This document shows, one piece after another, positions 1 through 8,737 of a stretch of 11,290 bases of DNA. Position 1 is the stretch's first letter; each line of letters opens with the position of its first letter. A program made the translations under genes and the position numbers. The notes below the pieces were generated by a model. That model had not been told where the DNA came from, made no database searches, and saw only the letters and a program-made list of their open reading frames with translations. Origin of the DNA: Nitrospirota bacterium (GTDB lineage: Bacteria; Nitrospirota; UBA9217); assembly GCA_029858565.1 (NCBI GenBank), contig JAOUEV010000087.1:1-11290 (forward strand), in the 5' to 3' direction.

Positions 1-705
1 ATTAAGAAACCAATTAATTTGATAGAGGTCTGGATTTTTGGCAAACAGCTGTAATATCTCATCCCTATGCGCCAGATTGCCGAGCATCCTGCATATTGAA
101 GCAAGAAGCCAATAGTCTTCATCATAATCAAGGGTTAGACGTAATTTCAATTGGTGGGTTTGCGTTTCGGGAAGTACTACGCTGCGAAGACCCTTGATTT
201 TTTCCACGTAATACCACATCATCTCGGTATCCGCCTCGTCAGACAGGCCTGTGCAGGCCTGCTTTACAACATCAGCGGTAAGGGAGTAACCAACGCTTGC
301 ACCGCCGGCCGACGACGACGGTGTCGGGCAGATCATGTCATATTTGCCGTCGGCAAGAAGCTGCATGCTTCGCTTCATTTCGTCGCCATCGAAAAAAGGA
401 TCGTCCGCATCAACGGTATGAAAGGCCGAAATCCGAAAGTACGAGGCGCAATCAGACCAGCGCTTGAGTTTGTTGACCATCGATCCTCGAAAGCATCTGA
501 CTTTTTCTGACTCTGCTATCTTTTCAAGAATATCGTCCGACGGGTCAGTGCTGGTACAGACGATGGGATCAATGCCGTAATGACGTGCGCGGCGGATCAC
601 ATGCTCAATCACATTGCAATCGCCAAAAGGAAGAAGACACTTCTTCGGCAGTCGCGACGACGATGTTCTTACCGTGATAAATCCGACCGGCAAATCAGCG
701 GCCAT
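1..705 (-). CDS. SpsF/KdsB/NeuA-like (CTP_transf_3) ulosonate cytidylyltransferase, partial (3' end beyond left window edge)
   Basis: Not in the ORF track because there is no stop in the window. Manual translation from ATG 705 (alternative ATG 714; in-frame TAA just upstream) is open to base 1: MAADLPVGFITVRTSSSRLPKKCLLPFGDCNVIEHVIRRA...VCTSTDPSDDIL...FRGS...VDADDPF...RLTLDYDEDY.... The RxxSSRLPxK, TS-xxx-SDD, FRGS and RLTLDYxED motifs are typical of SpsF-like cytidylyltransferases. SD-like AAAGGATGGTG precedes 705. Confidence 0.85.
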   Translation of the reverse strand, partial: MAADLPVGFITVRTSSSRLPKKCLLPFGDCNVIEHVIRRARHYGIDPIVCTSTDPSDDILEKIAESEKVRCFRGSMVNKLKRWSDCASYFRISAFHTVDADDPFFDGDEMKRSMQLLADGKYDMICPTPSSSAGGASVGYSLTADVVKQACTGLSDEADTEMMWYYVEKIKGLRSVVLPETQTHQLKLRLTLDYDEDYWLLASICRMLGNLAHRDEILQLFAKNPDLYQINWFLN

Positions 706-777
706 AATCACCATCCTTTACAACACAGTATCTTTATCTTTTCTTTGCCTTTATCGGTGTTGTGGCATGCTTCTTTG

Positions 778-1386
778 TCATACAGCCTTCCGAAAATATT
801 CAGCTTCGACCAGCCCGCACAAAATATGGCCCAACATGATATGGCTTTCCTGAATACGGGCGGTCTCCGCGGAGGGTATGCAGATGCACTCGCATAAATC
901 GCGCAGGCGGCCACCGCTCCGGCCGGTCCAGCCCACGGTCGTAATTCCCATCTCCCGCGCGATTTCCACCGCCGCAAGGATATTTGGGCTGTTGCCGCTG
1001 GTGGTGATAGGGATGAAGACGTCCCCGGGTCTTGCGATCGACCGCAGCTCCCGTGCGAATACCTTCTCGTACCCGTAGTCATTCCCTATCGCGCTGATTG
1101 CCGAGTTGTTTGTACCTAGCGCAAGCGACGGCAGCGGATCACGGTCGAACATAAACCGAGACGTGAATTCCGCGGAAAGATGCTGGGCATCGGCGAAACT
1201 GCCGCCATTGCCGCAGAAAATAATCTTTCCGCCCGATCGCAAGGTCTTCAAGCAGGCTTGGGCCGAGCGTTCGAGCTGCTCAAGAATACTGCCGTCGTTC
1301 AATATGCTCTGTTTGACCGCAATCGAAGCTTCAATCTGCTGACGTATCGTATCGATCAGCAGCGTCCCCTGCGTGCCCATGTTCAT
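778..1386 (-). CDS. gmhA: D-sedoheptulose 7-phosphate isomerase (SIS domain)
   Basis: Motifs CGNGGSFADAQH, AIGNDYGY, TSGNSPN, TGRSGG, IQESHIMLGHILC. ATGA overlap with the upstream synthase stop (1383-1386); alternative ATG at 1380. Confidence 0.93.
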   Translation of the reverse strand: MNMGTQGTLLIDTIRQQIEASIAVKQSILNDGSILEQLERSAQACLKTLRSGGKIIFCGNGGSFADAQHLSAEFTSRFMFDRDPLPSLALGTNNSAISAIGNDYGYEKVFARELRSIARPGDVFIPITTSGNSPNILAAVEIAREMGITTVGWTGRSGGRLRDLCECICIPSAETARIQESHIMLGHILCGLVEAEYFRKAV

Positions 1387-3275
1387 AGCGTTCCCTCGAG
1401 TCTTTCCATCGCGATCCAGAACCCTTCCCCGCCGTTCTTATGCCCCTGCCATATCTCGGGAATGAAGGACGCGTCAGGACACTTGTCCTTGAAGATCTTT
1501 CCAAGACGAACAAAGTCGATTTCCCCTTCTCCCACCTGCAACCCCTCTCCATTCAAGCCTTTTGCATCGCCCATATGAATGTGCGCCGTATAGGGGGCTA
1601 TTTGCTCGGAGAACTCGTAGAAATCGACTCCGTAGTAATTGCATGTAAGCCGGCTGTGCGAAATGTCGTAGCACATGCGGATTCCCAGCTTTTTGCACCA
1701 TGGAACGATTTCGTCGATCTTTACGAACATATTCTGGTACCGCTGTCCCCCAAAATGCCACGGGAACGGAGCCATGGTTTGCGGGATGAACTCAACGCCG
1801 TCCCTGTCGAGTTCGTCGAGACTGCGGGCAAAACGTTCATAATACCCCGGGACCGCGGCGGCAGGCAGCGGTGCATCCATGGTGAAACCGCCGACATTCG
1901 CAACGATCGGGGGTCTCTTGGTTTTTGGAAAAAACCGCTTTAGGCCTCGCGTGATGTCTATGACCCGCTGGGTTTCCCGGAGCGATTGTTCGCGATAGGC
2001 TTTGTCAGGGGTCGCCAAGTCCATAAGATGGCTGCCGGCAAACAACTCCGGCGCGTGAACAACGAAGTCAAAGGGATATTCTCCCTGAAGAAACTTCGAC
2101 GGATCGATGTCCATATCGGAGTAGGAAAGATGAAATTCAAAAAGGTCGGGCCGGATCTTATTCCGGTATTCGTCGAAATCGTGATAGCGGACCGGCACGC
2201 CCCAGGGGCGTTTGAAGGCGTATGCTCGCGGTTCGATGCGCTTGTCGCTCAGGTCCGAGGGATAGAAGAAATCCTCGGCCGTCATATCCCTTTGCAGCGT
2301 GCGGCCCAGGAGCTTTTCATAGTTCTGGGGCGAGAGCCCCTGTCCCGGACTGCGCACGATGACATGTTCTGCCGTAAGGACCGTTCCCTTTCGAAGATCA
2401 CCTGCCGCGACCAGGCTTTTGCCCAGGTTTTCCCGGTTGATCATCTCGCCCTGCGACAGCCGGCGTTCTGTCCCGTCCCCCATGGCCTGTTCGATCTCGC
2501 GGATACCTTCCACGAGCCGCCTGAACTCAATAGGTTCAAGACTTGCCGCATGATCAGGGCCTTCCATGGTCCGGTCGAGCGTAAAGTGCCGTTCGATCAT
2601 ACAGGCCCCAAGCGCTACCGCGGCAAGCGATACCGCTGTCCCCCGCTCATGTCCGGAATAACCGACGAACGGATGAACCTTCTTTAGCTGGTCAAGCCAG
2701 CGCAGTTGGATGTCATGCAACGGGGCCGGGTACGTGCTGTTGCAGTGGAGCAGGATGAATTTTGATTTACGTCGATTCAAGAAGTCGACAGAAATACGGA
2801 CTTCCTCGGTTCTGCTCATGCCCGTCGACAGGATTAGAGGTTTTCCGGTTGCGCTCAGCCGATCGAGCAGCGGAAGATTGGTGAGGTCTGCAGAGGCAAC
2901 CTTGTACGCGGGAACCGGAAAGGTTTCCAGCACCTCGATACTGCGTTCGTCCCATGGCGTACAGAGGTACAGGATCCCTTTGCGACCGCAGTATTCCGCC
3001 AGTTCGCGGTGTTCATCGACCGAGAGCTCGAATCGCCTCAGCAGGTCGAGCACATATTCCGTGCTCAGGTCTTCGCCGCGCTTATGCAGTGAGCGCTGAC
3101 GATACACCTGGTCCAGATGTCGCATCTGGAATTTTGCGCAATCCGCTCCCGCGGCAGACGCCTGATCGATTAGCTCCCTGGCGCGATCGATGCTGCCATT
3201 ATGATTGTTCCCTATCTCGGCGATGATAAACACCCTGCCGGACCCTACCTGGTGATTGCCTATGGTAATATTCAT
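1383..3275 (-). CDS. NeuB-family PEP-dependent ulosonic acid synthase (NeuB + SAF/AFP-like domain) fused to a C-terminal xylose-isomerase-like TIM-barrel domain
   Basis: N-terminal ~340 aa carry NeuB motifs IIAEIGNNHNG, KFQ, YKVASAD, ILSTGMS, LLHCNSTYP, GYSGHE, IERHFTLD, GPDHAASL, followed by an SAF-like segment (KSLVAAGDLRKGTVLT...RSPGQGL). The remaining ~280 aa (about 1383-2230) have DISH, HIHMGD and PEIW, a metal-ligand pattern of the sugar-phosphate isomerase/epimerase (AP_endonuc_2) fold. Product sugar unknown, so no gene symbol. Confidence 0.88.
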   Translation of the reverse strand: MNITIGNHQVGSGRVFIIAEIGNNHNGSIDRARELIDQASAAGADCAKFQMRHLDQVYRQRSLHKRGEDLSTEYVLDLLRRFELSVDEHRELAEYCGRKGILYLCTPWDERSIEVLETFPVPAYKVASADLTNLPLLDRLSATGKPLILSTGMSRTEEVRISVDFLNRRKSKFILLHCNSTYPAPLHDIQLRWLDQLKKVHPFVGYSGHERGTAVSLAAVALGACMIERHFTLDRTMEGPDHAASLEPIEFRRLVEGIREIEQAMGDGTERRLSQGEMINRENLGKSLVAAGDLRKGTVLTAEHVIVRSPGQGLSPQNYEKLLGRTLQRDMTAEDFFYPSDLSDKRIEPRAYAFKRPWGVPVRYHDFDEYRNKIRPDLFEFHLSYSDMDIDPSKFLQGEYPFDFVVHAPELFAGSHLMDLATPDKAYREQSLRETQRVIDITRGLKRFFPKTKRPPIVANVGGFTMDAPLPAAAVPGYYERFARSLDELDRDGVEFIPQTMAPFPWHFGGQRYQNMFVKIDEIVPWCKKLGIRMCYDISHSRLTCNYYGVDFYEFSEQIAPYTAHIHMGDAKGLNGEGLQVGEGEIDFVRLGKIFKDKCPDASFIPEIWQGHKNGGEGFWIAMERLEGTL

Positions 3276-4660
3276 GTTTGATCCGCTTCAACATGGTGTT
3301 TTCGTTCACGAGCCGACCATGCACGCAGTCCTTCCTGTTCAAAACGGAATGGTCGGACCTTCAGCCCCGCATGGTCCAAGTGGTCGCAGAATTCGTTCTT
3401 TCGGAAGGGAGGAACATAGAATATAAAGAAACCGCCGCCGCCCGCGCCGAGCAATTTTCCGCCGACAGCTCCGTTTCGCAGAGCATCTTCGTAGATCTGG
3501 TCCAGCCTGCCATTTGAGATCTGGGAGCTGAACTTGCGTTTGAACTGCCACGCTTCATGCAGGGATTGCCCGAACTGCAGGAGCCTGCCCCGAAGCAGAT
3601 GATTGCGCATGCGATAGGTCAGCTCCACGTTCATCTGAACCTGTTTGCGAATATCCGATTGTTGCATATGCCGCCGCTGATCCTGATGGATATTTCCCGA
3701 GTTGTGTGTTGTGCCGGTATCGCAGAGAACAAGGCTCTCCTCGAGTTCAAGCAGTGTATCAGGATGGACCCGGAGCGGGTGCACGATGTTCTGGTCCATC
3801 CGGAATTCCATGAAGTTGAATCCGCCGAAGACCGTGGCGTACTGGTCCTGCCAGCCCCCGGCAATGCCGAGATAGAGCCGTTCCGCCTGGAAGGCGAGTT
3901 CGGAGAGCTCATGTAAGTCCCATTGATCCCTGCGAAACTGATTGAAACAGCCAAGCACAACGGCAGCCACGACAGCAGAGCCGCCAAGGCCGGAGTTCAT
4001 GGGGAAATCCGACTGGAGATAAAGCTCAAACCCGAAATCCGGATGCACCGCCTTGAGCAATGCTTGGATGAGCCCATACTGCCCTTTTTGCGTCAACGCG
4101 CTGTGCAGGTCGGGAGCCTGCAGGGTTTCCCCGAGGTCACGCGAATGAATAAACACCTGGTTATCGGACCGCATCCGCAGGGTTGCATGGCTGTAGAGCG
4201 AAATGGTCGTATTGATGACCGCGCCATCCTCTCCAGCGAAGAAGTGCGTCAGGTCTGATCCCCCGCCGCCGAAACTGATCCGCACCGGCGACCGGGCCCG
4301 GGCGTAGATCCGTTCTTCCGCCTGCACCGGAAGTCGATCCCGGCTGACAATGCCGGTCAAGCGCCTCTCGGCATCGAGCAACGGGATCACGCGAATGCTG
4401 TGATCGAGTTGTTTGAGGAGGATCTCCCGGGGCGTTGCTTCATCGGCCCAAATAAAGTCAGGATTTGCACAGGTCCCGATCCGATCATCAAGCGATACGC
4501 CTTCTACGAGGCGTTGCCGGATATCGCCGTCAGTTGCAAGACCGACCACCGCCCCGGTTTGATCGGTTACGAGGATGATGCCATGCTGGTTTGCACTGAT
4601 CTGCTTGAGCGCATTCCGTAACGGGGCCTCCTCCGATATGACGAAAAGACTGAGGTTCAC
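3272..4660 (-). CDS. hddA: CBS-domain / GHMP kinase fusion, D-glycero-alpha-D-manno-heptose 7-phosphate kinase-like
   Basis: GHMP motifs RSPVRISFGGGGSD, PMNSGLGGS, GGWQDQY, GGKLLGAGGGG. N-terminal ~110 aa are a CBS pair (GLATDGDIR; VIPLLDAERRLTGIVS). Start moved from the track's 4696 to GTG 4660, which overlaps the hddC stop (GTGA) and follows AAAGGAAA. Confidence 0.87.
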   Translation of the reverse strand: MNLSLFVISEEAPLRNALKQISANQHGIILVTDQTGAVVGLATDGDIRQRLVEGVSLDDRIGTCANPDFIWADEATPREILLKQLDHSIRVIPLLDAERRLTGIVSRDRLPVQAEERIYARARSPVRISFGGGGSDLTHFFAGEDGAVINTTISLYSHATLRMRSDNQVFIHSRDLGETLQAPDLHSALTQKGQYGLIQALLKAVHPDFGFELYLQSDFPMNSGLGGSAVVAAVVLGCFNQFRRDQWDLHELSELAFQAERLYLGIAGGWQDQYATVFGGFNFMEFRMDQNIVHPLRVHPDTLLELEESLVLCDTGTTHNSGNIHQDQRRHMQQSDIRKQVQMNVELTYRMRNHLLRGRLLQFGQSLHEAWQFKRKFSSQISNGRLDQIYEDALRNGAVGGKLLGAGGGGFFIFYVPPFRKNEFCDHLDHAGLKVRPFRFEQEGLRAWSARERKHHVEADQT

Positions 4661-5370
4661 AGAGTTTCCTTTTTTTCGGACCGGATCCAATGACAAAAGC
4701 GGAAATAGTCTTCCGGTATCCCGATATCAATGAAGGGCGTGTCCAATGAAACGGCATGTAGGCGGCCGCTTGCTGCAAGATGAACGAAGAGGTCTTTTTC
4801 CAGTGAGAACGGCCTTCCGTCCCATTGCAGGAAAACATCTGCAGTTAAATGGTATAAACCCGCGTTGATCAAACCGGCCCCTGCGTTTTCATGCTTCTCA
4901 CGGAATGCGAGCACTGTATCCTGCTCTATGTGAACAGCGCCATAACGGCCGGCATCGTTCATACGAACAGCCGCTAGAGCCGGCGGCTGGGTCATGGAGA
5001 TCTGTCGAATTCCAGACCCCAGCCAGGTATCAGCATTGACAACCAGGAATGAACCGGCGAGCCCGAGCTTCCTGACGGCAAAGGCGACCGCGCCGCCAGT
5101 TCCCATCGGTTCAGGTTCGATCACGGTGTCGATCTTGCAGCCTTTTAACAGACCGGTAACTTGTTCCTCAGCCAGGTACTGTTCGATCTGCTCAGCTTGA
5201 TGATGCAGCAGGAAACAAAAGTGGCTGATCCCCTGAACTATCCATTGCTCAATCAAATAGTGTAGAAATGGCCGCCCTTCCACCGGTGCGAGAGGTTTGG
5301 GTACCTCAGAAACAGCAGAGCGAAGTCTTGTTCCAAATCCTCCTGCGAGCACCAATAGTTCAGGCGTCAT
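4657..5370 (-). CDS. hddC: Sugar-1-phosphate nucleotidyltransferase, heptose 1-phosphate guanylyltransferase-like
   Basis: LVLAGGFGTRL...PKPLAPV, EPEPMGTGGA, NADT, INAGLY, FIDIGIPEDY; 237-aa single domain next to hddA/gmhA/gmhB. Confidence 0.85.
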   Translation of the reverse strand: MTPELLVLAGGFGTRLRSAVSEVPKPLAPVEGRPFLHYLIEQWIVQGISHFCFLLHHQAEQIEQYLAEEQVTGLLKGCKIDTVIEPEPMGTGGAVAFAVRKLGLAGSFLVVNADTWLGSGIRQISMTQPPALAAVRMNDAGRYGAVHIEQDTVLAFREKHENAGAGLINAGLYHLTADVFLQWDGRPFSLEKDLFVHLAASGRLHAVSLDTPFIDIGIPEDYFRFCHWIRSEKKETL

Positions 5371-6217
5371 GTGGAATTCGCTCTAAAAAGGCGATAAGGG
5401 TATCGCATTTCCCAATTGAAGCAAGGGACGCCGAATAAGCGGCATGCAGCGCCTCACTGTCGAGAAACTGCCAGTGCTTGTGACCGCCGGGCTGGTGGCG
5501 ACTGAGCCAGTAGAGATGATTGGACAGCGGATATCTCTGATGTTGCTGGATCGAGACTATCCGCAGGCCGGCCTGGTCCGCCAGCTGCCGCAGGTTATCC
5601 GCGTTAAACAAGAAAAGATGCTTGCTCCAGTAGGTAAAACGCTGGAACGCCTCGTTTTCGTAGAGCGTCAGCAGCGAATCTTCGGCATTGGGCACTTCAA
5701 GAATAAGCTTTCCATGATTCTTAAGTCGAGATGCCAGCTCTTTCAGCATGGTGCGGGGATCAGGCAGGTGTTCTATCACATGGAAAGCAGTGATCAAGTC
5801 ATACCCATCGCCAGCATCTGTGATATTCTCATGCAGAGCGATTGTATTTCCCCAATATGCCCTTACGCGTCGTTCCGGCTCAACTCCGGATACTTCAGCA
5901 GCTAACGTCTGAGCCTTGCGCAGGAAGCCTGCCGCACCGCAGCCGAAATCCAGCACTTTGCTATTGACCAGAAATCCCTTGAACATTTCAAAACGGCGGT
6001 CATCATCTGCTTCGGCGCCGCGCAGCCATGATTCCATAGACGGGACAGCGTCGCCGTGCATCCCCGATTCTTCATAGTGCCCGTCTGAAATGTGGTTAAG
6101 AGAGCTTAGCATCACAAGTCCGCAGTGCTCACACTCAAGGATTTCCAAAGAAGGATCATCACGGACAGCACCGGTGCGGACTTTGAACTCATTATGATTG
6201 CAGATATAGCATTTCAT
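5360..6217 (-). CDS. Class I SAM-dependent methyltransferase with N-terminal CxxC...CxxC zinc ribbon
   Basis: CYIC...CEHC at the N-terminus, SAM motif I VLDFGCGAAG, FHVIEHLPDP, LEVPN; overlaps the hddC start by 11 nt. Confidence 0.85.
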   Translation of the reverse strand: MKCYICNHNEFKVRTGAVRDDPSLEILECEHCGLVMLSSLNHISDGHYEESGMHGDAVPSMESWLRGAEADDDRRFEMFKGFLVNSKVLDFGCGAAGFLRKAQTLAAEVSGVEPERRVRAYWGNTIALHENITDAGDGYDLITAFHVIEHLPDPRTMLKELASRLKNHGKLILEVPNAEDSLLTLYENEAFQRFTYWSKHLFLFNADNLRQLADQAGLRIVSIQQHQRYPLSNHLYWLSRHQPGGHKHWQFLDSEALHAAYSASLASIGKCDTLIAFLERIPHDA

Positions 6218-6319
6218 GGTGTCATACCCGGGCGATCGAATAGGTAGCGGATCGCAAAGCTCTTATTCCATTTCCATCGCGTGGCTCCCGCGGAGTGCGT
6301 GATCATCATAGACCGTGCG

Positions 6320-6862
6320 TTACCGCCGGATGGCATAGGTTGCCGCTTCAAGGAACGAATCAACAACTGGATAAGTGCCTGACAAATCGTTTTCTGCAAG
6401 CATCTTACGGAGGTCATGCAGGGCAGTATCGACACCTATACCGCCGCATCCAAGTTTCTTTGCCGTCAATAGATCGGTAACGTTGTCACCGATGTAGCAC
6501 AGGTCATTTGCTGCAGCCCCATACTCTGCCATGATCTCCCGTCCGAACTTGGAGGAAGGCTTTCTGTAATCAGCGGGCTGTTCCGGCGATTCTGGTGCCA
6601 TGCATACTCTTTCAAAGAGATCGCTGCCAAGTCCAATCTGCCTCAGCATCTCCTGATTGCAGCGCTCGGCATCGTGATAGGAAAAATATCCTCTTCCTAC
6701 TCCCGACTGATTCGTATGCAGGAATAATCTGCATCCCGATTGTTTCAGGATCTGAAGCCCCTCTTTCACGGTCGGTAGTATGCGCACTTTCTCTGGGTCG
6801 CAGAGATAGGGAATATGCTCGATCAGTGTGCCGTCCCTGTCAATAATTATATGTTTTGCCAT
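6320..6862 (-). CDS. gmhB: HAD-IIIA phosphatase, D-glycero-D-manno-heptose 1,7-bisphosphate phosphatase-like
   Basis: DRDGTL (motif I), TNQSGVGRG (motif II), RKP (motif III), IGDNVTD (motif IV); heptose-pathway neighbourhood. Confidence 0.87.
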   Translation of the reverse strand: MAKHIIIDRDGTLIEHIPYLCDPEKVRILPTVKEGLQILKQSGCRLFLHTNQSGVGRGYFSYHDAERCNQEMLRQIGLGSDLFERVCMAPESPEQPADYRKPSSKFGREIMAEYGAAANDLCYIGDNVTDLLTAKKLGCGGIGVDTALHDLRKMLAENDLSGTYPVVDSFLEAATYAIRR

Positions 6863-6935: not shown

Positions 6936-7931
6936 TCAGTGCAGTAATCCCCGAAGTTTCTTTTCCCACTGAAAGGCATCCCTGACGATCTGGTCAAGAG
7001 AATCGAACTGCGGCTGCCACTGGAGCAGGTTCTTGATCTTGTCGGAGCGCGCGATGAGGCTGGGAGGATCTCCCGGACGCCTTTCTGAACTTTCGACGGT
7101 AAAGTCCGTTCCTGAAATCCGCCTTACTGATTCAATGACCTGACGGACGCTGCTTCCATGGCCATATCCGACGTTGCAAGTTAAAGAGGCGTTCCTATCT
7201 TCGAGATACTTCATTGCAAGAAGATGCGCGCGCGACAGGTCTTCGACATGAATATAGTCCCGGACACCGGTTCCATCCGGCGTCGAATAGTCAGTTCCGT
7301 AAATCTGCACTTTGCTCCTCAGCCCCAGCGCGGCTTCGCAGCAAACCTTCAGCAAATGCGTTGCATTGGGGCTGCGCTGTCCGATCCTGGTTTTGGGGTC
7401 AGCTCCGGCAACGTTGAAATACCGGAGAATGGCATATTTCAAGCCGTTCGATCTCGCCACATCCATGATGATCTGCTCTGAAAAAAGCTTGGACGATCCA
7501 TAAGGATTCAGCGGCGCGGTTTCCGAATCTTCAGACACAACTCCCTCCGGCGGGGACGCATATACCGCGGCTGTACTGGAAAAAATTAAATTTTTAACGT
7601 TATGGTCTGCGCAGGCCTTGAGGAGATTGATGGTTCCGCAGGTATTGTTCGTGTAATAATTGAGCGGCAGTTTGACGGATTCCGGCGCGATTATCGACGC
7701 GGCAAAATGCAGTACTGTTCGTATGGCGTTCTTTTCAAAGACCCTGTTCAATGCGCTGCTGTCATGAATATCTCCCTGAACAAGTTGTTCTCCGTGAAGG
7801 AGAGACTCTCGAAAGCCTGTCGATAAGTTGTCGAATACGATGACCGAATGTCCAGATTCAGAAAGCATTCTTGTCACATGACTGCCTATATAACCAGCCC
7901 CACCCACGACAAGTACGGGCATATTTATCAT
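6936..7931 (-). CDS. galE: UDP-glucose 4-epimerase
   Basis: GGAGYIGSH, HFAA, FSSTAAVY, YGSSK (YxxxK), LRYFNVAGA, RDYIHVEDL, RRPGD. Confidence 0.93.
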   Translation of the reverse strand: MINMPVLVVGGAGYIGSHVTRMLSESGHSVIVFDNLSTGFRESLLHGEQLVQGDIHDSSALNRVFEKNAIRTVLHFAASIIAPESVKLPLNYYTNNTCGTINLLKACADHNVKNLIFSSTAAVYASPPEGVVSEDSETAPLNPYGSSKLFSEQIIMDVARSNGLKYAILRYFNVAGADPKTRIGQRSPNATHLLKVCCEAALGLRSKVQIYGTDYSTPDGTGVRDYIHVEDLSRAHLLAMKYLEDRNASLTCNVGYGHGSSVRQVIESVRRISGTDFTVESSERRPGDPPSLIARSDKIKNLLQWQPQFDSLDQIVRDAFQWEKKLRGLLH

Positions 7932-8191: not shown

Positions 8192-8737
8192 TCATGCTTC
8201 TTCCACTTCAGATGCGTCGATCGTGACAGACGTGCTTTGCCGAATTATATCGATGGACAGCACAAATAGGCTCTGGTCTGTCTTCTTGATCAGGATCCCT
8301 TCTACTCCCGAGAGCGGACCACGCTTGATCCTGACGCGCTGTCCTTCGTGAAGATAGGGATATGGATCGAGGGGAAGCTCTGACTCAATAATCCGCTTAA
8401 GAGCATCGATCTGTTCATCCGGTACCGTCTCCGGTTCCCCGGGCACGGTGCCGAGCAGACGCACGACTCCTTTTGTTTTGAGTACTGCAAGCCGGGAGGT
8501 ATGATCTTGTTCCAGGTGAACGAATAGGTAGCCGGGAAAGAGCGGAAAGCGTACGCGCTTATTTCTATCCTTCCATTTACGGGTCACGACGACAGAAGGG
8601 AGAAGGAATTCGATCCCCGCTCCTGTGAGATGATCGGCAACTAAGAATTCGTGTCTTGCCTTAGTATGTACGGCATACCAGCTTGCTGTTGTCTTCAACC
8701 TTGGCTTTACCAGTTCTTTATAACGTTTTTCTCCCAT
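8192..8737 (-). CDS. Specialised NusG paralogue (UpxY/RfaH/LoaP-type transcription antiterminator)
   Basis: NGN domain WYAVHTKARHE...PLFPGYLFV...GVVRLLG and KOW domain GQRVRIKRGPLSGVEGIL; placed at the head of a glycan operon rather than in secE-rplK context. Start uncertain (ATG 8737 or TTG 8698). Confidence 0.9.
   Translation of the reverse strand: MGEKRYKELVKPRLKTTASWYAVHTKARHEFLVADHLTGAGIEFLLPSVVVTRKWKDRNKRVRFPLFPGYLFVHLEQDHTSRLAVLKTKGVVRLLGTVPGEPETVPDEQIDALKRIIESELPLDPYPYLHEGQRVRIKRGPLSGVEGILIKKTDQSLFVLSIDIIRQSTSVTIDASEVEEA

Follow-up and report, generated by a model that had tools for sequence, protein, structure and literature searches.

A widespread gene cassette links heptose-type enzymes to a NeuB-TIM fusion synthase and probably builds an uncharacterised acidic surface sugar

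Results

The stretch of DNA analysed here (the window; 11,290 nucleotides from a Nitrospirota bacterium, at the start of a contig labelled C70) carries a polysaccharide operon on its minus strand. Gene identities were assigned by Pfam and NCBIfam profile searches. At the head of the operon lies a UpxY-family transcription antiterminator (8192..8737; NF033644, 120.4 bits against a cut-off of 100; Pfam NusG), and the first gene encodes the UDP-glucose 4-epimerase GalE (6936..7931; TIGR01179, 447.2 bits, cut-off 262.3). GalE is outside the conserved cassette that follows; GalE-like matches, all of them weak, occur in 17 of 60 related loci. GalE is followed by a GmhB-like HAD-IIIA phosphatase (6320..6862; TIGR01662, 79 bits, cut-off 44.6), a SAM-dependent methyltransferase annotated as a tailoring enzyme (5360..6217; Methyltransf_23, 93 bits) and an HddC-like sugar-1-phosphate nucleotidyltransferase of the NTP_transferase family (4657..5370). 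The next gene (3272..4696) fuses a CBS pair (approximately 4331-4648) to an HddA-like GHMP kinase (3314-4300; Pfam CBS, GHMP_kinases_N and GHMP_kinases_C). It is followed by a 630-residue synthase (1383..3275) composed of NeuB (2469-3173), SAF (2250-2417) and an AP_endonuc_2 TIM barrel (1440-2141), all Pfam assignments, then by a GmhA-like sedoheptulose-7-phosphate isomerase with a SIS_2 domain (778..1386) and an SpsF/PseF-like cytidylyltransferase (1..714; CTP_transf_3, PF02348, 39.5 bits, cut-off 22.6), of which 238 residues fall in the window. Adjacent genes overlap by 11 nt (methyltransferase and nucleotidyltransferase) and by 4 nt on either side of the synthase, and, provided that the kinase starts at the TTG at 4696, it overlaps the nucleotidyltransferase by 40 nt. 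A first-pass annotation of this DNA had described the same open reading frames, order and stop/start overlaps, all of which are present, and had correctly noted that NeuC, 4,6-dehydratase, aminotransferase and acetyltransferase genes are all missing from the window.

That annotation also held that the operon runs past base 1. It does, and it resumes on a second contig, C111, whose end matches the first 147 bases of the window with one mismatch. The cytidylyltransferase reading frame stops there, 13 codons beyond base 1 (read at positions 7624-7809 of locus L003). C111 further encodes a DegT aminotransferase and two oxidoreductases, along with another TIM barrel and an aminoacyl-transfer set that includes an adenylation enzyme and a GNAT-carrier acyltransferase. 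No contig overlapping the start of C111 was found.

At least 680 relatives of the synthase are present in genome_contigs, and the cassette occurs in hundreds of species. Synteny was counted in the best 60 of these relatives (67-78% identity), whose loci span Pseudomonadota, Bacteroidota, Leptospira, Cyanobium, Nitrospinales and others. Within these 60 closest loci the gene order is fixed. The CBS-kinase lies directly upstream of the synthase in 56; in three of the four loci that lack it the contig ends no more than 404 nt ahead of the synthase gene, leaving 56 of 57 informative cases. Downstream of the synthase or the isomerase, 56 of the 60 carry a CTP_transf_3 gene, and the nucleotidyltransferase and the gene labelled SDRb (51 each), TIM2 (50) and the isomerase (48) are nearly as regular. 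The GmhB-like phosphatase (22) and methyltransferase homologues (25, mostly just upstream of the phosphatase or nucleotidyltransferase genes) are less so. The nucleotidyltransferase is missing from six loci that have space for it upstream, and 11 loci lack the isomerase on the cassette strand. At one locus (L037) kinase and nucleotidyltransferase are both replaced, by Gmd and a 3,5-epimerase-like gene. No conserved glycosyltransferase was found in the cassette. Because this order recurs in the 60 closest loci and across many phyla, the arrangement is far beyond chance, and the window holds one copy of a widely, horizontally transferred cassette. Whether close homologues of the synthase mostly occur without heptose genes, a question raised with the first-pass annotation, is answered by the 56 of 57 informative loci, in which heptose genes do accompany them.

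A second, unbiased sample of 401 genomes within one phylum/order gave a similar picture. The CBS-kinase is present in four genomes and in all four is adjacent to a NeuB-TIM gene. Unlike the cassette kinase with its N-terminal CBS pair, the 20 plain HddA-like genes of this sample (31-37% identity) have no CBS domain, and none lies beside NeuB-TIM. The pairing of CBS-kinase and synthase is thus exclusive on the kinase side; three of the seven NeuB-TIM genes in these genomes have no kinase. GmhA-like genes occur in 355 of the 401 genomes, and adjacency to an unfused NeuB was not seen among the rows compared by eye.

The pair is also retained in a deep second clade, represented by P. chlororaphis PCL1601, Ca. 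Accumulibacter and the genome G620, in which a kinase 42-44% identical to that of the window lies directly upstream of NeuB-TIM; the CBS-kinase itself was found beside NeuB-TIM in both P. chlororaphis and Ca. Accumulibacter. An HddC-like nucleotidyltransferase directly precedes the kinase in two of these three loci, and G620 has a weaker match (32%) approximately 6 kb downstream. Here a TPP enzyme takes the place of the CMP-transferase downstream, and no CMP-transferase lies within approximately 9 kb. Seven further loci (L184-L187, L189, L193 and L194) encode NeuB-TIM with a CTP_transf_3 gene but no kinase, nucleotidyltransferase or isomerase gene. More distant NeuB-TIM proteins accompanied by a cytidylyltransferase alone share 51-55% identity with the window protein, and the kinase-free loci examined overall 49-55%. 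Since ManC lies upstream of the cytidylyltransferase-NeuB-TIM pair in three clade-i loci and Gmd occurs at L037, NeuB-TIM keeps company with GDP-sugar enzymes. In a synthase tree built by quick search and including 24 of 58 clade-ii rows, the clade of the window synthase retains kinase, nucleotidyltransferase, isomerase and phosphatase neighbors. These distributions support inheritance of the heptose-type genes and the synthase as one unit.

Adjacent genes are transferred jointly whatever their function, which counts against reading such co-inheritance as a single pathway.

All four enzyme types of the GmhA/HddA/HddC/GmhB GDP-heptose pathway occur in the cassette, where, unlike in the known pathway, a PEP-condensing synthase and a CMP-transferase are encoded among them. 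The isomerase aligns with B. pseudomallei GmhA (2xbl) at 201.9 bits, with 91 of 182 aligned residues identical (approximately 50%, counted from the alignment). It keeps the His and Glu of AQH..E and the Gln and His of IQE..GH, which we take to be the catalytic and metal-binding residues of GmhA. This gene is an extra, cassette-specific copy; the housekeeping GmhA is encoded at C49. The closest solved relatives of the kinase are the heptose-7-phosphate kinases 4n3o, 3k85 and 4usk (173-183 bits; HddA/WcbL for 4n3o and 4usk), and it is the only HddA-like gene in the genome, which is 100% complete by markers. The best solved relative of the nucleotidyltransferase is HddC (5xhw/6jq8, 122.8 bits), followed by mannose-1-phosphate guanylyltransferases, suggesting that it is a heptose-1-phosphate guanylyltransferase. 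The phosphatase matches HisB-N (55 bits) and GmhB (4pnh, 45.7 bits) and is a candidate heptose 1,7-bisphosphate 7-phosphatase. All four proteins score below the cut-offs of the corresponding NCBIfam equivalogs: 187 bits against 276 for GmhA (NF010546), 228 against 600 for HddA (NF049969), 140.9 against 300 for HddC (NF049965) and 81.5 against 178 for GmhB (NF006506).

The synthase contains clear NeuB (PF03102, 285 bits, cut-off 22.1), SAF (PF08666, 43.1 bits, cut-off 21) and AP_endonuc_2 (68.7 bits, cut-off 31.1) domains, and with 344.9 bits remains below the cut-off of the N-acetylneuraminate synthase equivalog TIGR03569 (399.65). Glu20, Lys48, Gln50, Thr106, Lys125, Ser128 and Ser150 align with Glu25, Lys53, Gln55, Thr110, Lys129, Ser132 and Ser154 of N. 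meningitidis NeuB, and Tyr182, Ser207, His209, Glu228, His230 and Asp241 with its Tyr186, Ser213, His215, Glu234, His236 and Asp247. The N. meningitidis positions are presumably the metal- and PEP-binding residues, so by alignment the NeuB catalytic residues are intact. Arg314 in the SAF domain of the N. meningitidis enzyme, which we take to be the arginine that contacts the N-acetyl group, aligns with Ser309 in the cassette synthase. The neighboring cytidylyltransferase falls far below the cut-offs of KdsB equivalogs.

The predicted model of the TIM domain (pLDDT 87.9) gave 326 PDB matches at E<=0.001 in Foldseek. These are generic, with Endo IV at the top and ketose 3-epimerases and UlaE among them, at TM scores of 0.56-0.67, and an hhalign comparison with E. 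coli Endo IV is weak (52% probability). In this weak alignment Asp193/His196, His223 and Glu263 fit the metal ligands of Endo IV and of ketose 3-epimerases alike. The first Glu ligand is replaced by Gln155 in the cassette clade, and Asp229/His231 of Endo IV have no counterpart. Foldseek and hhalign matches are unspecific across the superfamily, and the function of the domain cannot be read from them. No enzyme known to free a sugar from GDP was found in the cassette. When specificity positions were compared (with the read-through row L189 trimmed to 632 residues), nine were common to both kinase-linked clades and absent from the seven kinase-free rows, against 11 in a control comparison, and thus showed no excess.

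Precursor genes for a nine-carbon acid were sought beyond the window, as the genes downstream of base 1 bear directly on the first-pass interpretation. Epimerase_2/NeuC (PF02350) and PseG (TIGR03590) have no match in the whole, marker-complete genome; no NDP-HexNAc 4,6-dehydratase is encoded in the window or on C111, and one PglF-like gene maps to C23, away from the cassette. Neither downstream nor in the rest of the genome was a complete C9 precursor pathway found.

Discussion

Bacterial surfaces are capped by sialic-acid-like sugars, which control how phages, grazers and immune systems recognise the cell. To our knowledge, all characterised members have eight or nine carbons. The product of the cassette described here is probably an acidic, uncharacterised surface sugar that may have ten carbons. 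From the gene content and sequence relationships, we consider the chances about even that its enzymes form one pathway that starts from sedoheptulose-7-phosphate, passes through GDP-heptose and ends in an aminated C10 ulosonic acid activated with CMP.

In such a pathway, the GmhA-like isomerase would convert sedoheptulose-7-phosphate to D-glycero-D-manno-heptose-7-phosphate. The CBS pair of the kinase may provide feedback control at the committed step. The NeuB-SAF-TIM protein would accept GDP-heptose, from which the TIM domain, or another cassette enzyme, would free manno-heptose, and the NeuB domain would join this sugar to PEP to give a 3-deoxy-dec-2-ulosonic acid, the ten-carbon homologue of Kdn. 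The oxidoreductases, second TIM barrel and DegT aminotransferase encoded on C111 could then put in an amino group, which the adenylation enzyme and carrier-GNAT protein would acylate with an amino acid; the methyltransferase would add a methyl group, and the SpsF-like enzyme would form the CMP-sugar for a surface glycan. The first-pass annotation had proposed the GmhA product or a modified heptose derived from GDP-heptose as a possible substrate of the synthase. The co-inheritance, the restriction of the CBS-kinase to NeuB-TIM loci, the similarity of the isomerase to GmhA, the kinship of the nucleotidyltransferase with HddC and the lack of a complete C9 precursor pathway lend that proposal partial support; the kinase-free pairs of NeuB-TIM and cytidylyltransferase, and Kdn in Serratia, leave room for its alternative of two independent sugars. 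More tentatively, and with somewhat less confidence than in the pathway as a whole, we suggest that NeuB-TIM is a new two-step enzyme whose TIM domain frees a manno sugar from a GDP-sugar before NeuB adds PEP; it might convert GDP-mannose to Kdn in the kinase-free clades and, in the cassette, GDP-heptose to a 'decu-losonic' acid of ten carbons, to be modified by amination and aminoacylation and activated with CMP.

The cassette might instead supply two independent sugars to one glycan. NeuB-TIM and the cytidylyltransferase would then make a CMP-Kdn-type C9 acid from mannose or a derivative, to be aminated and acylated, and the heptose genes would make GDP-heptose for a heptosyltransferase. In Serratia marcescens KL1/KL2, NeuB carries an extra COG1082 sugar-phosphate isomerase/epimerase domain and adjoins the cytidylyltransferase gene neuA, and neuB is required for the nine-carbon ulosonic acid Kdn and for the capsule (Anderson et al. 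2022, PMC9000132). The fusion of NeuB to an AP_endonuc_2-type domain beside a cytidylyltransferase is thus common to both systems, likened here by description, the loci compared directly being the seven kinase-free ones. Since the pair stands alone in those seven loci and goes with Kdn in Serratia, the synthase may need no dedicated precursor genes, and a two-sugar reading keeps some force; mannose metabolites are on hand in any cell, and the specificity positions of the kinase-linked clades show no excess. Yet for Serratia only neuA and neuB are described, whereas the cassette synthase is flanked by kinase, nucleotidyltransferase, isomerase and phosphatase genes, with an amination and acylation set beyond, and so departs from a module of fusion and cytidylyltransferase without dedicated precursor genes. 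Moreover, no CBS-kinase was encountered apart from NeuB-TIM (four of four, 56 of 57 informative and two of two cases), the pair persists in the deep clade with different downstream chemistry, the genes are interleaved with 4-nt overlaps, and the cassette has no conserved glycosyltransferase. On balance, two separate sugars appear rather unlikely.

A phosphorylated route to a C10 acid seems distinctly improbable. Man-6-P is converted to Kdn-9-P in B. thetaiotaomicron and animal pathways. By analogy, heptose-7-phosphate could condense directly with PEP, with the TIM domain (or the HAD enzyme) stripping the terminal phosphate and the kinase and nucleotidyltransferase making GDP-heptose for another use. 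The phosphoesterase Endo IV belongs to the AP_endonuc_2 superfamily and is the top Foldseek match; Asp193/His196 and His223 align weakly with its metal ligands, but Endo IV Asp229/His231 lack counterparts. This route would also give no pathway function to the kinase, with which the synthase is most tightly associated; the isomerase is absent from 11 and the phosphatase from 38 of the 60 closest loci, and the SAF-bearing NeuB resembles bacterial enzymes that act on unphosphorylated sugars.

It is equally hard to credit a GDP-linked C9 route akin to the Campylobacter legionaminic acid pathway, in which the heptose-like enzymes would use a different sugar phosphate, for example that of a hexose: all four miss their equivalog cut-offs, and a PtmA-like SDR (NF006619, 149.7 bits), a CBS domain and a GDP-type transferase are common to the cassette and the ptm set, but the isomerase retains the GmhA motifs and shares about 50% identity with a bona fide member of that family, the best solved relatives of kinase and transferase are heptose enzymes, and the cassette lacks a 4,6-dehydratase and a hydrolysing epimerase.

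The single-pathway reading nevertheless shares its logic with that Campylobacter jejuni route to CMP-legionaminic acid, reportedly described by Schoenhofen and colleagues in 2009 and said to pass through a GDP-sugar, a free manno-type aldose, PEP condensation and CMP activation. The proposed pathway starts from a heptose and not from GlcNAc, and LegB dehydratase, LegG hydrolysing epimerase and LegH are missing from the cassette. Both gene sets include a CBS domain, a PtmA-like SDR, a GFO-type oxidoreductase and a methyltransferase (PMC4481668), with the CBS domain on the kinase in the cassette and on the transferase in C. jejuni. PtmF, considered as a possible SIS protein, is an oxidoreductase in the published gene table, which rules that assignment out (PMC4481668).

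Literature searches for the cassette or for ten-carbon ulosonic acids gave no description of the cassette and turned up only two mass-spectrometry papers and the Serratia paper; the SugarBase supplements may hold gene assignments. The first-pass annotation was aware of no characterised pathway to a CMP-linked C10 ulosonate, and this calls for amendment. In the accessible part of the mass-spectrometric account, ten-carbon ulosonic acids appear as signals to which no genes are attached, among them a CMP-linked alpha-keto acid from Magnetospirillum with a marker equal to the C9 marker plus CH2. Like the proposed cassette product, this compound is a CMP-linked alpha-keto acid with a backbone of more than nine carbons; it is of the diamino Leg/Pse type. 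A degenerate DNA pattern search for the cassette (at least 120 stretches) did not return Magnetospirillum among the 80 matches listed, which is no evidence of absence.

The cassette offers a concrete, testable genetic route to a ten-carbon ulosonic acid. If the two-step reading of NeuB-TIM is correct, the cassette would represent the first genetic route known for any higher-carbon relative of sialic acid, spread by gene transfer across many phyla. Testing the route would also explain what the extra domain of the Serratia capsule synthase does, and glycoengineering could make use of a new CMP-sugar and its transferases.

Operon content and its continuation past the window

The window, bases 1-11,290 of contig C70, contains 12 ORFs, all on the minus strand. 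Pfam and NCBIfam matches identify a biotin-gene trio (BioF, a FabG-like short-chain dehydrogenase/reductase (SDR), and BioD; 11289-8921) directly upstream of the polysaccharide operon, in which the SDR gene splits bioF from bioD and overlaps them by 20 nt and 44 nt. An UpxY-family antiterminator (8737-8192) and GalE (7931-6936) come next, followed by a HAD-IIIA GmhB-like phosphatase (6862-6320), a Methyltransf_23 methyltransferase (6217-5360), an HddC-like nucleotidyltransferase (5370-4657), a CBS-pair::HddA-like GHMP kinase (CBS-kinase, 4696-3272), a 630-residue NeuB+SAF+AP_endonuc_2 fusion (NeuB-TIM, 3275-1383), a GmhA-like SIS protein (1386-778), and a CTP_transf_3 cytidylyltransferase (714-1). 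This is the gene order read in the first-pass annotation, from the phosphatase to the cytidylyltransferase, and the stop/start overlaps it described from the methyltransferase through the SIS gene are present, measuring 11 nt, up to 40 nt, 4 nt, and 4 nt.

The operon was also expected to continue past base 1, and it does. Window bases 1-147 match, with one mismatch, the last 147 bases of contig C111 (7663-7809 of its locus, L003), indicating that the assembly split the cytidylyltransferase gene between two contigs; the stop of this gene lies on C111, 13 codons beyond base 1. There, on the same strand, follow a PseC/LegC-like DegT-family aminotransferase (~213 bits, under cut-offs), a second AP_endonuc_2 TIM barrel (TIM2), a GFO/IDH/MocA oxidoreductase, and a classical SDR whose top NCBIfam model, NF006619 (149.7 bits), is of the PtmA “flagellin modification” type. 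These precede a GNAT acyltransferase with a weak C-terminal match to the phosphopantetheine-carrier family PP-binding (20.3 bits; cut-off 20.8), a DltA-like amino-acid adenylation enzyme (TIGR01733, 340 bits; cut-off 317), and an LA_1612-family protein truncated by the contig end. A Sediminibacterium locus (L015) has its cytidylyltransferase, DegT, TIM2, GFO, and SDR genes in this same order, which speaks for the join. At the start of C111, no overlapping contig was found. The adenylation enzyme and the GNAT protein with its weak carrier-domain match suggest that the sugar carries an N-aminoacyl group.

Markers put genome completeness at 100%, and searches of the whole genome returned no match to Epimerase_2 (NeuC/LegG) or PseG and no second HddA-like gene. 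The genome holds two weak NeuB-family matches (G000:C122:3132-3716, 46.6 bits, in an open frame of 385 aa; G000:C16:9705-10256, 32.4 bits, in one of 340 aa) and a single PglF-like dehydratase at another locus. A second GmhA-like gene on contig C49 matches the copy carried by 355 of 401 genomes sampled from the phylum, and the window SIS gene is thus an extra, cassette-specific copy.

A conserved cassette surrounds NeuB-TIM

Scanning a single genome for each species confirmed at least 680 relatives of the fusion. The 60 best distinct loci among them, 67-78% identical to the window fusion, occur in alpha-, beta-, and gamma-Pseudomonadota, Bacteroidota, Leptospira, Cyanobium, Nitrospinales, Bacteriovoracaceae, and others. 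Harmless cultured carriers include Daejeonella sp. H1SJ63 and Cyanobium sp. Cruz CV13-4-11. Gene content was counted by tblastn with window and representative proteins (coverage >0.5, same strand). The co-occurrence with heptose genes proposed earlier holds across these 60 loci: the kinase is found in 56, the nucleotidyltransferase in 51, and the SIS gene in 48. CTP_transf_3 accompanies the synthase in 56, a conserved SDR (SDRb) in 51, TIM2 in 50, a FabG-like SDR (SDRa) in 46, the methyltransferase in 25, and the HAD phosphatase in 22. Gene order is fixed, with the methyltransferase, HAD, and SIS genes optional: methyltransferase, HAD, nucleotidyltransferase, kinase, NeuB-TIM, SIS, CTP_transf_3, a variable amination block, TIM2, SDRa, and SDRb. 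In three of the four kinase-less loci no more than 404 nt separate the synthase from a contig end; at L037, the remaining one, genes for a GDP-mannose 4,6-dehydratase and a 3,5-epimerase-like protein occupy the kinase position. Several Bacteroidota-type loci place an ABC exporter gene before the kinase, and the nucleotidyltransferase gene was not found in them. In the Sediminibacterium locus L015, where the SIS gene is absent, a PglD-like hexapeptide acetyltransferase gene (11980-12612) sits between NeuB-TIM and the cytidylyltransferase.

The amination block, between CTP_transf_3 and TIM2, is occupied by a class IV aminotransferase in 21 of these loci, by one of class III in 16, or by DegT in 15, and a VOC protein was seen in 19; elsewhere an extra SDR occurs with no aminotransferase. 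The pattern at the amination step is one of non-orthologous displacement.

A quick tree of NeuB-TIM recovers two kinase-linked and two kinase-free groups, without resolving the branching order of the four. The window synthase groups with Pseudomonadota sequences (97% SH-aLRT), apart from the Bacteroidota members of its own clade, which indicates transfer. The downstream tailoring genes, on the other hand, are most similar to those of L015 and L024, both from Sediminibacterium, and together with the placement of the synthase this gives the locus a mosaic, horizontally acquired appearance.

In the genomes sampled, the CBS-kinase is found only beside NeuB-TIM

We examined the pairing reciprocally in 401 genomes drawn evenly from the order of one cassette locus (L017). 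HddA-like matches occur in 24 of them. Just four matches cover the CBS region, each immediately adjacent to a NeuB-TIM gene. The remaining 21 matches, from 20 genomes, begin near residue 106-134, and none of them neighbors NeuB-TIM. The TIM domain of the fusion is present in seven of the 401 genomes, three of which have no CBS-kinase. In this sample, therefore, NeuB-TIM can occur without the kinase, and the CBS-kinase is never seen without NeuB-TIM.

Among the 401 genomes of the phylum sample, full-length fusions besides that of the window are 51-55% identical to it in six genomes and 32% identical in one. At the six such loci examined (five at 51-55%, one at 32%) the synthase adjoins a cytidylyltransferase, with no kinase, nucleotidyltransferase, or SIS gene. 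Three of the kinase-free loci (L184, L186, and L187) carry ManC (GDP-mannose pyrophosphorylase) and an extended SDR just upstream of this pair. ManC is a weak hint here, because the three loci are mutual kin and 5 of the 60 cassette loci also have ManC no more than 10 kb away. At locus L188 the synthase is flanked by two Gmd-like genes. At L189 (1804-4647) the NeuB-TIM frame runs on through the extended-SDR gene that follows, an open frame of 969 aa with no intervening stop; its sister L187 has a normal NeuB-TIM stop. Either a genuine fusion or misassembly of this incomplete MAG could explain the read-through.

A third clade is represented by Pseudomonas chlororaphis PCL1601 (L190), Ca. Accumulibacter sp. 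66-26 (L191), and genome G620 (L192), with kinases 42-44% and synthases 49-52% identical to those of the window. P. chlororaphis PCL1601 is a harmless cultured strain. In each of the three loci the kinase adjoins NeuB-TIM on its upstream side; an HddC-like nucleotidyltransferase gene directly precedes the kinase in L190 and L191, and L192 has a weaker match ~6 kb downstream. RfbF/RfbG/RfbH-like CDP-dideoxyhexose genes precede the synthase, a TPP-dependent enzyme follows it, and CTP_transf_3 was not found within ~9 kb. By analogy with yersiniose and caryophyllose chemistry, the keto acid of this clade might supply the acyl anion in making a branched higher-carbon sugar.

Catalytic residues of the synthase and its partners

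The SIS protein aligns with Burkholderia pseudomallei GmhA (2xbl) at 201.9 bits, with 91 of 182 aligned residues identical (counted from the alignment), and retains its His/Glu and Gln/His motif residues, which are catalytic or zinc-binding. The closest solved relatives of the kinase domain are heptose-7-phosphate kinases (4n3o, 3k85, and WcbL 4usk; 173-183 bits), and those of the nucleotidyltransferase are HddC (5xhw/6jq8, 122.8 bits) and then mannose-1-phosphate guanylyltransferases. The HAD protein is only loosely GmhB-like. Because all four score under the NCBIfam equivalog cut-offs, they are relatives rather than certified orthologs. In alignment with Neisseria meningitidis NeuB, the NeuB domain retains the residues that bind metal, PEP, and sugar, and has Ser at the position of Arg314.

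A confident AlphaFold model of the TIM domain built from 28 sequences (pLDDT 87.9) has generic PDB neighbors, namely Endo IV, ketose 3-epimerases, UlaE, and rhamnose isomerase (TM 0.56-0.67). Polar residues invariant across the family include H38, H63, D193, H196, H223, D226, E263, and H268. A weak profile alignment with Escherichia coli Endo IV places D193/H196 at D179/H182, H223 at H216, and Gln155, which is Glu in one kinase-free clade, at E145, leaving D229/H231 unmatched; these Endo IV positions are metal ligands.

A candidate pathway to a ten-carbon acid

Our best reading, which we hold at about even odds, is a single pathway whose every substrate-to-product step is inferred. GmhA, HddA, GmhB, and HddC would make GDP-heptose, which NeuB-TIM would convert to a ten-carbon 3-deoxy-2-ulosonic acid; tailoring enzymes would aminate, aminoacylate, and methylate this acid, and the SpsF-like enzyme would activate it with CMP. 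The weakest link is release of the heptose from GDP, which we tentatively assign to the fused TIM domain because it alone accompanies NeuB in every clade. Co-inheritance, the exclusive pairing of CBS-kinase and synthase, and retention of the nucleotidyltransferase–kinase–synthase triad despite different downstream chemistry favor a single pathway over two separate sugars, a CMP-Kdn-type acid and GDP-heptose, an alternative we consider about half as probable. The cytidylyltransferase–NeuB-TIM pair of the kinase-free loci has the layout of Serratia neuA-neuB; in Serratia, Kdn is reported to depend on neuB (PMC9000132). A phospho-route starting from heptose-7-phosphate and a substrate other than heptose are each improbable.

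Full-text searches found no description of the cassette in the papers they covered. Mass spectrometry has given evidence of a ten-carbon acid in Magnetospirillum; from the published marker masses, we infer that it is diamino and doubly deoxygenated, unlike the product expected of the cassette. Within the cassette itself, the swapped amination enzymes may yield epimeric or hydroxy variants of one sugar.
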